Shown here: in pieces, positions 1 through 44,609 of the stretch
Layout of the letters: every line of letters begins with the position of its first letter
Position numbering within the stretch: position 1 is the first letter of the stretch
Source of the DNA: a virus
Lineage: Duplodnaviria; Heunggongvirae; Uroviricota; Caudoviricetes
Length of the DNA stretch: 44,609 nt
Virus record (IMG/VR): IMGVR_UViG_3300045988_011059
Location: 1 to 44,609 of that record
Direction: 5' to 3' (one strand)
The notes under the pieces: generated by a model
The model's database searches: none
What the model saw: the letters and a program-made list of their open reading frames with translations, nothing else
What the model was told of the DNA's origin: nothing
Translations under genes and position numbers: made by a program

Positions 1-89
1 ATTTTTTTTATCTATTTTCTGTAATGACTAGTTGACTATTACCTACGACCATATTATATCTACTCCATCGACAACGAGAACGGAGTAGA
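1..89. repeat. 89-bp direct terminal repeat, identical to 44521..44609
   Basis: Exact identity of the first and last 89 nt of the window, read directly; contains a promoter-like element and abuts a terminator hairpin. Confidence 0.95.
32..60 (+). promoter_or_regulatory. Sigma70-like promoter (TTGACT-N17-TATATC) inside the terminal repeat
   Basis: TTGACT at 32-37, 17-nt spacer, TATATC at 55-60; lies upstream of the first small gene (ATG 94). Confidence 0.5.
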
Positions 90-93
90 GAAG

Positions 94-2245: not shown

Positions 2246-2339
2246 GTACATCCCTCCCAATCCCCTTATATAATCCTTTTAGACGCGTAGGGCGCGTCTG
2301 ATGCGCTCTGATGGTCAGACGCATAAGCAAGGGGATTCT

Positions 2340-2885
2340 ATGAAGCTGAAACTTAAGCAGCCATCGCCAGAGGTGGTGCAAGCTGCACATGAAGAAGCGG
2401 TTAGCGCAAACCGTCGCCGTAGACGACCGCGTGGCAAACAGAGCCTTTATCAATCATCCCGTAATTCCGCCGCGTTGTGGGACCCGGACTATTGCGACGA
2501 ATTAATCGAGTTCTTCGACCGCACGTCGTGGGAACTGGTGCCTACGTCCAAAGGTGACGAACGTCCGCTGATTCAGGATAAGCCACCATCTCTGGCCCGC
2601 TTTGCCTTACATATCGGCGTCACTATCCCGATTATTAAGCTGTGGCTGCGCGAGATTCCCGCATTTGCCGAAGCCTATGAAACAGCACAGGCACTGGAAG
2701 AGGCATATTTCACTGAGACTGGGGCCGCGGGCATCTCTGCTACGTTTGCCGCCGCGAAGCTGGGACTCGGCAAAGAGAAACCGGTTGAATCGACCGAAGA
2801 AACAGCGCCAACAGAGATTATTTTCAGTGTTGCGGAGCCTGTGGGTAAAATCGTAACAACGAATATGGGTGAGGTAGAGGAATGA
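2340..2885 (+). CDS. Putative terminase small subunit
   Basis: Immediately upstream of and overlapping the large terminase; basic N-terminal region (RRRRRPRGK); AAGGGG RBS before ATG 2340; role inferred from position. Confidence 0.5.
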   Translation: MKLKLKQPSPEVVQAAHEEAVSANRRRRRPRGKQSLYQSSRNSAALWDPDYCDELIEFFDRTSWELVPTSKGDERPLIQDKPPSLARFALHIGVTIPIIKLWLREIPAFAEAYETAQALEEAYFTETGAAGISATFAAAKLGLGKEKPVESTEETAPTEIIFSVAEPVGKIVTTNMGEVEE

Positions 2886-4132
2886 GTATTCAGCTATCCG
2901 CGCCACAGGCTTTGTTCCTGAATTGTGACAATAAATACAAAGCATACGTCGGCGGCTTCGGCAGTGGCAAGACGTTTGTGGGCTGTCTGGACCTGCTTAC
3001 GTTCATGCTCAAGCATCCAGGTACGCGCCTTGGATACTTCGGCCCGACATATCCCGCTATACGCGACATCTTCTACCCGACATTCGAGGAAGCGGCTAAC
3101 CTGCTTGGCCTCGATGTGCTGGTTAAATCCGGCGACAAAGAGGTTGTGGTTACTCGCGGTAAGACGGTGCTCGGAACTGTTATCTGCCGTTCAATGGATA
3201 ACCCTGGCTCGATTGTGGGCTTCAAAATCGCCGCAGCTGTCGTGGATGAGCTGGACGTATTGAGTCGCGAGAAAGCTGAGCTGGCGTGGAACAAAATTGT
3301 AGCCCGTATGCGTCTGGTTATTCCTGGCATAACTAACCACATCTCTGTCACCACGACGCCAGAAGGGTTCAAGTTCGTCTACGCCAAGTTCAAAGAGAAC
3401 CCGACGCCTAGTTACTCGATGGTGCAGGCATCCACACATGAGAATGCGCGTTTTCTGCCGCCGGACTACATTAGCTCGCTGACCGAGACTTATCCGGCGC
3501 AACTGATTAACGCGTATCTGAACGGTGAGTTCGTCAACCTTACCTCCGGCAGCGTGTATTACGCGTATGACCGCCGTAAGCACCGCAGCAAAGAGACAAT
3601 TCAACCGGGCGACACGCTGTACATCGGGCAGGACTTCAACGTTACGAAGAACGCGAGCGCCGTATATGTACAGCGAAAAGACGGCTGGCACGCGGTGGCG
3701 GAACTGAAGGGCCTGTTCGATACACCAGACACCGTGCGTGTAATTACCGAGAAGTGGAAGTCGCAGGGCCACCGCATTGTCGTTTACCCCGATGCCAGCG
3801 GCAAGAACCGCAAGACAAACTCAGCGTCAATCTCTGATATTGCATTACTCCAGCAGGCCGGGTTCGATGTTCGCGCTAAATCCGCCAACCCTCCGGTTAA
3901 AGACCGTGTTTTAGCAGTGAATACCGCGCTGGAAAAAGGTAAGCTGTGGGTTAATGACCACTTATGCCCCGAGATAGCCAAGACGCTGGAACAGCAGGCA
4001 TACGATGATAACGGAGAGCCAGCTAAAGACGGCATCATTGACCATATGGCGGATGCTCTCGGCTACCCTGTAGTTTACGAGATGCCGGTGGTTAAACCAG
4101 TAATCAACATCCCGGTGACTTTCGCACTTTAA
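2882..4132 (+). CDS. Terminase large subunit
   Basis: Walker A GGFGSGKT near the N-terminus, about 416 aa, followed by the portal gene. Confidence 0.85.
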   Translation: MSIQLSAPQALFLNCDNKYKAYVGGFGSGKTFVGCLDLLTFMLKHPGTRLGYFGPTYPAIRDIFYPTFEEAANLLGLDVLVKSGDKEVVVTRGKTVLGTVICRSMDNPGSIVGFKIAAAVVDELDVLSREKAELAWNKIVARMRLVIPGITNHISVTTTPEGFKFVYAKFKENPTPSYSMVQASTHENARFLPPDYISSLTETYPAQLINAYLNGEFVNLTSGSVYYAYDRRKHRSKETIQPGDTLYIGQDFNVTKNASAVYVQRKDGWHAVAELKGLFDTPDTVRVITEKWKSQGHRIVVYPDASGKNRKTNSASISDIALLQQAGFDVRAKSANPPVKDRVLAVNTALEKGKLWVNDHLCPEIAKTLEQQAYDDNGEPAKDGIIDHMADALGYPVVYEMPVVKPVINIPVTFAL

Positions 4133-5657: not shown

Positions 5658-5695
5658 ATAGTATGCTATTAACTTTAGCACCACAGGGTTTATCT

Positions 5696-6739
5696 ATGAG
5701 CTTACTTACATCCCTAATAAGCCACCAGATATGGCTACAACGAGCCGCTTCCGGTGAAGTGAAAGACCTCACACCATTCATTCAGGAGATGCGAGACGAA
5801 ATCAAACGGCAGGTTCTGCTATTCGGTGACGACGGTCGCAGCACTGCGCGACTGAATAAACTGTTACGCGACCTCGAAGAAGCACTGGCAGGACTTACCG
5901 GTGACTGGCAAACAAAACTGACAGAAGACCTTAAGGAACTGGTGGCATATGAGGCTGAGTGGAACGTAAAGACGCTGACGGCTAACGTTAACGCGGAATT
6001 TGTTACGCCTACCGCAGAACAGGTGTGGGCCGCTGCCGAGTTTCAGCCATTATCGTTAAGTGACAAGCCTGTTGATTTCACGAAGCTGATGTCTGGCTGG
6101 GGTGAAACGGAGGTCGCGCGCCTGGTAACTGGCGTTAAGATGGGTTTCGTACAAGGCCAAACCACACGGCAGATTGTTAAAAATGTCGTAGGCGCTGGTG
6201 GACTGGCGGACATTTCAGAACGAAACGCTGCGACGGTAATCCGCACCGCTCTGTCTCACGTATCCAACGAAGCACGTAACGAGACGTACCGCCAGAACGA
6301 CGACATCATCGAGAAGTACGAGTGGGTGTCGACGCTGGACAGCCGTACCAGTACGATTTGCAGGGCCAGAGACGGGATGACGTGGGAAATCGGTAAAGGG
6401 CCGATGCCACCCGCCCATCCGAACTGCCGGTCGTGCACGGCTCCGGTAATCAGTTCCGAGTTCGACTTCCTTGATAAAGGTGCAAAACGCGCGGCTAAGG
6501 GTGCGGATGGCGGTACTCAGGTAAGCGCAGACACCACTTACTACGAGTTCCTGAAACAACAACCCGCATGGTTTCAGGACCAGGCGCTCGGCCCGGTGCG
6601 AGGTAAGATTTTCCGCAACAGCGGTATATCGCCGGAAGAGTTTCGCGTAATATCTGTAGATGGTTTCGGGAATCCGCTCACGCTTAAGCAGATGGCGGAA
6701 CTCGATAAACGTGTTGCTGATTATCTGAAAGGGGATTAA
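5696..6739 (+). CDS. Head morphogenesis / minor capsid protein
   Basis: About 350-aa ORF after the portal; start could be ATG 5663 or 5696; call mostly positional. Confidence 0.6.
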   Translation: MSLLTSLISHQIWLQRAASGEVKDLTPFIQEMRDEIKRQVLLFGDDGRSTARLNKLLRDLEEALAGLTGDWQTKLTEDLKELVAYEAEWNVKTLTANVNAEFVTPTAEQVWAAAEFQPLSLSDKPVDFTKLMSGWGETEVARLVTGVKMGFVQGQTTRQIVKNVVGAGGLADISERNAATVIRTALSHVSNEARNETYRQNDDIIEKYEWVSTLDSRTSTICRARDGMTWEIGKGPMPPAHPNCRSCTAPVISSEFDFLDKGAKRAAKGADGGTQVSADTTYYEFLKQQPAWFQDQALGPVRGKIFRNSGISPEEFRVISVDGFGNPLTLKQMAELDKRVADYLKGD

Positions 6740-44286: not shown

Positions 44287-44499
44287 TGGACGAATCCGAA
44301 GGCATTTAGTATTCTGGTTAGGCCAAGTTTTTCGTATTTGCTAATGGAGACCATTATGGCACTGCAAGAGTTCACCAGCCCAGTTAAATCTCGTGACGAT
44401 ATTGACGAGTCTATTGGTTACGGCGAAGGTTGACACCTAAGGCCAATCCTACGATACTTAAATCACCTCCTGCTCCATCCCTCTGCTCTCCAGTTTTAT

Positions 44500-44529
44500 C
44501 CCGGCCCTGACCCAGCCGGGATTTTTTTT
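44500..44529 (+). terminator. Rho-independent terminator abutting the terminal repeat
   Basis: CCCGGC-CCTGACCCA-GCCGGG hairpin followed by ATTTTTTTTA, which is the start of the 89-bp repeat. Confidence 0.7.
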
Positions 44530-44609
44530 ATCTATTTTCTGTAATGACTAGTTGACTATTACCTACGACCATATTATATCTACTCCATCGACAACGAGAA
44601 CGGAGTAGA
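44521..44609. repeat. Second copy of the 89-bp terminal repeat
   Basis: Identical to 1..89. Confidence 0.95.

Follow-up and report, generated by a model that had tools for sequence, protein, structure and literature searches.

The 89-bp duplication at the ends of the phage genome analyzed here is an artifact of assembly and not a feature of the phage. The window, i.e., the whole 44,609-nt stretch constituting IMG/VR record IMGVR_UViG_3300045988_011059, starts and ends with the same 89 bases, and a comparison of prefix and suffix confirmed the original prediction that positions 1 to 89 and 44521 to 44609 are identical. These 89 bases are the longest prefix of the window that matches a suffix, and an exact repeat of this length cannot arise by chance. 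Removal of one copy leaves a unique length of 44,520 bp with a G+C content of 51%. We assign a probability of approximately 95% to the explanation as a whole, which comprises a k-mer overlap from circular assembly, a breakpoint determined by the sort order of k-mers at a T8 run, and, most likely, headful packaging. The coordinates of all features discussed below are compiled in Table 1.

Under this explanation, a de Bruijn graph assembler would have found a closed loop for the phage genome and written it out in linear form with a length equal to the genome (G = 44,520) plus k (89), so that the first k-mer was repeated at the end. The DNA within the 89 bp is single-copy intergenic sequence in which the U-tract of a terminator is followed by a sigma-70 promoter and by the leader that precedes the first gene of an operon. 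Any 89 bases adjoining that breakpoint would have been duplicated. The value itself is odd and k-like, as 89 is a k of MEGAHIT in its meta-sensitive mode and also equals the IDBA_UD maxk of 90 minus 1. As the duplication was left by linearizing a circular assembly, it is uninformative with regard to the real DNA ends. The original prediction had described the repeat as carrying a promoter. In the sense of a terminal structure, however, the repeat carries no regulatory elements.

Table 1. Positions of the assembly overlaps and of genes and regulatory elements in the window
Feature	Position	Strand	Details
Left copy of assembly overlap (k = 89)	1-89		Intergenic, single-copy on the circular map
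Sigma-70-type promoter of the small-gene/terminase operon	32-60	+	-35 TTGACT at 32-37, N17, -10 TATATC at 55-60
Conserved leader	61-93	+	GGAG at 82-85, 8 nt before ATG
First small gene, 49 aa	94-243	+	phrog_2180 match, E = 4e-26
Terminase small subunit (2301-2885) and large subunit (2882-4132)	2301-4132	+	Pfam Terminase_6N, Terminase_6C
End duplication site of contig k109_61694	6474-6582		Inside Mu-F-like head morphogenesis gene (5663-6739)
Candidate small RNA with promoter-like site	44430-44529	+	TTGACA-N17-GATACT at 44430-44458, then about 65 nt, C/U-rich, to the terminator
Intrinsic terminator	44498-44529	+	Stem 44498-44505/44515-44522, loop of 9 nt, U8 tract 44522-44529
Right copy of assembly overlap	44521-44609		Removal leaves the 44,520-bp unit genome

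Two readings of the identical ends had been offered, namely, an overlap from circular assembly and a true short terminal repeat, and both could be examined against a second assembly of the same genome. An exact-protein lookup identified contig k109_61694 (ENA ERZ27293683), which bears a MEGAHIT-style name and is 44,629 bp long, i.e., 44,520 plus 109. No mismatches to the circularized window were observed over four stretches of 5,920, 6,150, 2,227, and 3,938 bp (approximately 18 kb sampled), and the 6,150-bp stretch runs across the window junction, with the 89-mer present internally and only once. The prefix and suffix of this contig are themselves identical over exactly 109 bp, at a site located within a coding sequence (Table 1). 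Among assemblies of the same genome, neither the position nor the length of the repeat was stable, as the overlap of 89 bp in the window was replaced by one of exactly 109 bp in the sister contig whose name carries k109. Furthermore, a Logan contig (SRR413651_574; 44,550 bp) was free of mismatches to the window over two sampled stretches, and its size fits 44,520 plus 30, the 30-bp overlap being deduced from size only.

End overlaps were also variable among relatives. Nine further circular contigs of the genus were rebuilt from IMG/VR, and seven of these had exact end overlaps of 55 bp (five contigs), 123 bp (one contig), or 141 bp (one contig). Each of these seven overlaps had a map position of its own, and the terminator was internal and occurred once in all seven contigs. 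The other two (IMG/VR 3300045988_002593 and 3300045988_011391) each had a 119-bp overlap and started at the same base as the window, bringing the nine relatives together to overlaps of 55, 119, 123, and 141 bp at eight map positions. The two 119-bp contigs differ in their T-runs (T8 and T9) and yet have overlaps of equal length, which is how an assembler k behaves; indeed, the values 55, 119, 123, and 141 are all assembler k values. Contig-end overlaps equal to maxK have been reported for metaSPAdes and MEGAHIT, and overlaps of maxK-1 for IDBA_UD, with 21, 29, 39, 59, 79, 99, 119, and 141 given as the MEGAHIT k list (PMC10914622). Likewise, permuted Salmonella phage genomes assembled with SPAdes were left with identical ends of 77 bp (PMC9409062). 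A separate case concerns PMC12827599. Although 77 is a default SPAdes k, the k settings stated in that paper (21, 33, and 55) omit this value, and the suspicion of an artifact of the same kind is therefore not established.

In GenBank, the 89-mer was found at 444 places in 442 phage records, so that it must be single-copy in at least 440 of them; the two extra copies, belonging to one or two records, were not located among the 120 matches listed. A 2.4-kb stretch across the circularized junction was contiguous and internal in 60 of the 60 records listed, whose starts vary widely. Since circular assembly would also collapse a true repeat, contiguity elsewhere does not exclude one when taken alone. 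Overall, the window combines exact identity of prefix and suffix with a junction that is contiguous and single-copy in other assemblies. It shares with other circular-contig overlaps from de Bruijn graphs the exact identity, a k-like length, and a position that shifts between assemblies. No difference in kind was found, and the window is unusual only in that its breakpoint coincides with a terminator.

A true short direct terminal repeat would give the virion fixed ends, each with the same 89 bp, and would place the promoter at the entering end. Such a repeat would be consistent with the exact identity of prefix and suffix, with two other circular contigs sharing the exact base of the left boundary, and with the position of this boundary next to a hairpin. 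However, contig k109_61694 duplicates other bases, starting at window position 6474, and the same left boundary goes with two different repeat lengths, 89 bp for the window and 119 bp for the other two contigs, both of which are k values. In addition, the 89-mer is single-copy in nearly all GenBank records that contain it, and the large terminase subunit (TerL) is of the Terminase_6 type and 98 to 99.5% identical to the enzymes of phages classified as headful by PhageTerm. A true terminal repeat can thus be set aside as practically excluded, and of the two readings originally offered it was the circular-assembly overlap that proved right. The similarity to the terminal repeats of T7-, SP6-, and K1E-like podophages (about 160 to 290 bp) is one of appearance only, consisting of a promoter within identical record ends. 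In contrast to those repeats, that of the window is unstable between assemblies and has a k-like length, its terminase belongs to a headful-type lineage, and the phage, a siphovirus, belongs to another family.

The location of the breakpoint can be accounted for by the T-run itself. The T8 at window positions 2 to 9 is the unique longest A/T run in the genome, the next longest being 6. Sorted colexicographically, the 89,040 89-mers of the two strands begin with a minus-strand k-mer that runs from plus-strand coordinates 90 to 2. Next in this order comes the 89-mer that is duplicated (89 to 1), and the overlap follows the smallest k-mer in the same way in both 119-bp contigs. MEGAHIT starts unbranched loops at the edge that follows the lowest-index edge of the sorted graph, a rule that predicts exactly the start base of the window. 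We infer that sort order caused the breakpoint one base before T8. The loop would have been opened at the first k-mer in the sort order of the graph, no DNA end being necessary there, and the resulting contig would be predicted to begin with ATTTTTTTT. On this reading, the breakpoint lies at a terminator because T8, as the longest homopolymer, gives the sort-extreme k-mer. A stricter version, according to which every MEGAHIT loop begins at the sort-minimal k-mer, had to be discarded, as it holds for only three of six MEGAHIT-style contigs. The k109 contig, the 123-bp contig, and the 141-bp contig all start elsewhere; presumably, their loops were closed once the graph had been cleaned or were taken by a different thread.

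Two other origins of the breakpoint, both compatible with a k-mer overlap, were considered. In the first, it would stem not from sort order but from a bubble in the graph between T8 and T9 versions of the homopolymer. The length of the T-run does vary from 7 to 10 among relatives, and two records, LP31 with the T-run exactly at both ends and IMG/VR 017057 with a start inside the run (T11), display the end pattern expected of a bubble-bounded unitig. However, by our own derivation, such a unitig should start at the first T, at window position 2, whereas the three circular contigs each have the A preceding the run as their first base, as sort order predicts. This favors sort order for those three contigs and makes a bubble the rather unlikely cause. 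As regards the deposited record of Salmonella phage LP31 (GenBank OL436139.1), it starts with T9 and ends with A plus T9, and a circle formed from it would hold T18, compared with T7 to T10 in relatives. Its ends are probably an untrimmed homopolymer overlap in a genome deposited as "complete."

In the second, the breakpoint would mark a real pac cut or another physical DNA end, where a pileup of read starts breaks assemblies. Records ending at or near the T-run include the window, the two 119-bp contigs, 017057 (T11), LP31 (T9 at both ends), and Ec1-ASingh, a partial contig that ends approximately 5 nt from it. However, the same T-run is both the sort-extreme k-mer and a length-polymorphic homopolymer (7 to 10 T), and either property suffices to explain the recurrence without a DNA end. 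Moreover, the seven rebuilt IMG/VR relatives with other start positions and k109_61694 pass straight through the run, and the small terminase gene (terS), where a P22-type pac site would be expected, lies 2.3 kb downstream. The pac sites of P22-type small terminases are usually located within or adjoining terS, and the Schulenburg record notes an HHpred similarity of its TerS to P22 gp3. A physical end at the T-run is therefore very improbable, and sort order remains the preferred explanation. Whichever technical cause applies, the coincidence of the repeat boundary with the terminator is a technical one without biological meaning.

The window represents a Kagunavirus (Guernseyvirinae) siphophage of Escherichia coli. 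Approximately 90% nucleotide identity over 75 to 92% of the first 20 kb was found with EF2-1, M01, XY2, SZH-1, and the BASEL phages Bas70 to Bas76. Both gene order and size match those of complete relatives of 40.8 to 45.8 kb, and the window was thus correctly described as a complete genome, meaning that it covers one genome unit of 44,520 bp. Relative to the Kagunavirus phages K1H, Schulenburg, Snoke, Sciku, fBC-Eco01, and Bas70 to Bas76, with which it shares about 90% nucleotide identity and the same gene order, TerL is 98 to 99.8% identical and the intergenic block from terminator to promoter is 92 to 97% identical. The window differs from them by a T-to-C change in the -10 element (TATATC) and in its accessory small genes, the latter being usual in the genus.

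The real ends of the virion DNA are determined by the terminase. TerL carries Terminase_6N and Terminase_6C, but Pfam does not decide the packaging mode, as the Terminase_6 family is broad, and a PDB sequence search with TerL gave nothing useful. More informative are the closest characterized enzymes: TerL is 99.0% identical to that of Schulenburg, 98.1% to that of Snoke, 97.8% to that of Sciku, and 99.5% to that of fBC-Eco01, with TerS identities to the same four phages of 93 to 97%. PhageTerm assigned headful or pac packaging to Schulenburg, Snoke, and Sciku (PMC6763661, PMC6776784, PMC6753286) and also to Shashou, for which TruSeq Nano library preparation was used (PMC6776780), while fBC-Eco01 had no obvious termini by PhageTerm (PMC9825357). 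The Jerseyvirus K47 was classified as P1-like headful by PhageTerm, its EcoRV pattern fits a circular map, and its band in pulsed-field gel electrophoresis (PFGE) was broad (PMC10783031). Furthermore, the K1G/K1H clade of TerL groups with headful packagers (PMC5582158). Near-identical terminases are thus found in phages whose headful packaging is backed by sequencing reads or by experiment, and a grouping of its TerL with terminases of the direct terminal repeat (DTR) type was not found. Given these near-identical terminases and the published data, the phage most likely uses headful (pac-type) packaging and would carry circularly permuted, terminally redundant DNA with no fixed 89-bp repeat. 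Existing knowledge of packaging in Kagunavirus is unchanged by the window.

A side observation concerns the distribution of TerL variants. The TerL of the window is at least 95% identical to that of 74 records (K1H type) and only about 54% identical to the TerL of XY2, EM1, and phiWAO78-1, which also belong to Kagunavirus, and to that of Jerseyvirus. The presence of two terminase alleles inside one genus points to a possible mosaic exchange of the packaging module within Kagunavirus.

The regulatory elements on either side of the breakpoint are real but already known in relatives. The terminator is conserved and has been annotated in Ent1, Schulenburg, and fBC-Eco01. Its hairpin core, CCCGGC-N9-GCCGGG, occupies positions 44500 to 44520, and the predicted stem of 8 bp has a fold energy of -13.9 kcal/mol (z = -2.3). 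A G+C-rich hairpin with a U-tract directly 3' of it is accompanied by compensatory changes in the stem, which covaries between Kagunavirus (GGCC type) and Jerseyvirus (GGTAA/TTACC) by the replacement of a C-G pair with a U-A pair and by extra A-U pairs. A consensus scanner missed the terminator because of its 9-nt loop. The hairpin had been predicted to end exactly where the repeat begins. This is accurate for the end of the core at 44520, but the terminator does not abut the repeat: with the T8 tract inside the repeat and the stem reaching 44522, the repeat boundary cuts the terminator in two. Consequently, the T8 tract at positions 2 to 9 of the left copy stands without its hairpin.

Similarly, the promoter is conserved, with annotations as a promoter in Jersey, AG11, and fBC-Eco01. 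Its second copy in the window lies at 44552 to 44580, with the second -10 element at 44575 to 44580. All 42 relatives compared have TTGACT and TATATT separated by a 17-nt spacer of variable sequence, while TATATC as the -10 element was seen in the window only (0 of 42 relatives). This variant may reflect either a genuine down-mutation or an erroneous base. It also explains why the promoter escaped the consensus scanner, as the element of the window lacks the T at the last position. A sigma-70 promoter would be expected to have its two hexamers 16 to 18 nt apart and a -10 element with A as its second and T as its sixth base. The proposal that this promoter feeds the gene starting at position 94 is supported by its conservation and by the three annotations, but it has to be qualified for the window itself, where the -10 element has a C at its most critical position.

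The protein encoded by the first small gene occurs in identical form on hundreds of public contigs, and the operon that starts with it runs into the terminase and structural genes. Within the leader, an inverted repeat (TACTCC-N15-GGAGTA) spans positions 61 to 87 and was found nowhere else in the genome. Its candidacy as an operator or RNA hairpin was rejected: besides being unique in the genome, it has a left arm that is not kept in Jerseyvirus, which makes a structural role doubtful.

Upstream of the breakpoint, the terminator is preceded by a promoter-like site and a C/U-rich stretch (Table 1) that together form a candidate small RNA unit. From 5' to 3', the predicted transcript would consist of a C/U-rich part, AGUUUUAU, the hairpin, and U8, with an AU-rich stretch ahead of the hairpin. 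Across 52 distinct sequences from Guernseyvirinae, the conserved part has its left limit exactly at the -35 element, although the DNA on the other side of this limit falls into six or more unrelated contexts. Nearly every one of the 52 sequences retains CUCCUG and CAUCCCUCU, and covariation is seen in the stem. On the basis of this conservation pattern, we tentatively suggest that the terminator may end an undescribed phage small RNA. The 5' end predicted for Kagunavirus, AUCACCUCCU, matches the anti-Shine-Dalgarno sequence at the 3' end of E. coli 16S rRNA over 10 nt, and by virtue of this match the candidate RNA could bind ribosome-binding sites. Sites complementary to its 5' end were not enriched in the phage genome (11 versus 7.5 expected). 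An Rfam search of the junction returned no family at threshold and only subthreshold terminator-like matches, and no paper on the candidate small RNA was found in the literature.

The region between the endolysin gene and this promoter block is an insertion hot spot. In the window (positions 44357 to 44433 and the block upstream of 44430) and in phiWAO78-1, approximately 140 bp lie between the endolysin stop codon (44286) and the conserved promoter block. This insertion-like stretch is absent from most relatives and holds a 25-codon open reading frame.

As the overlap is an artifact, we recommend that the final 89 bases be removed and that the record be handled as a closed circle with a unit length of 44,520 bp. 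A DTR flag raised by completeness tools on the basis of such overlaps is not to be read as a packaging mode. The window also illustrates that the loop start chosen by an assembler can fall beside a real regulatory element and seem meaningful, the longest poly(A/T) run of a phage genome often being the tail of a terminator. While the 89-bp repeat itself holds no new biology, the promoter-to-terminator unit upstream of it is the one lead with possible novelty for these phages.
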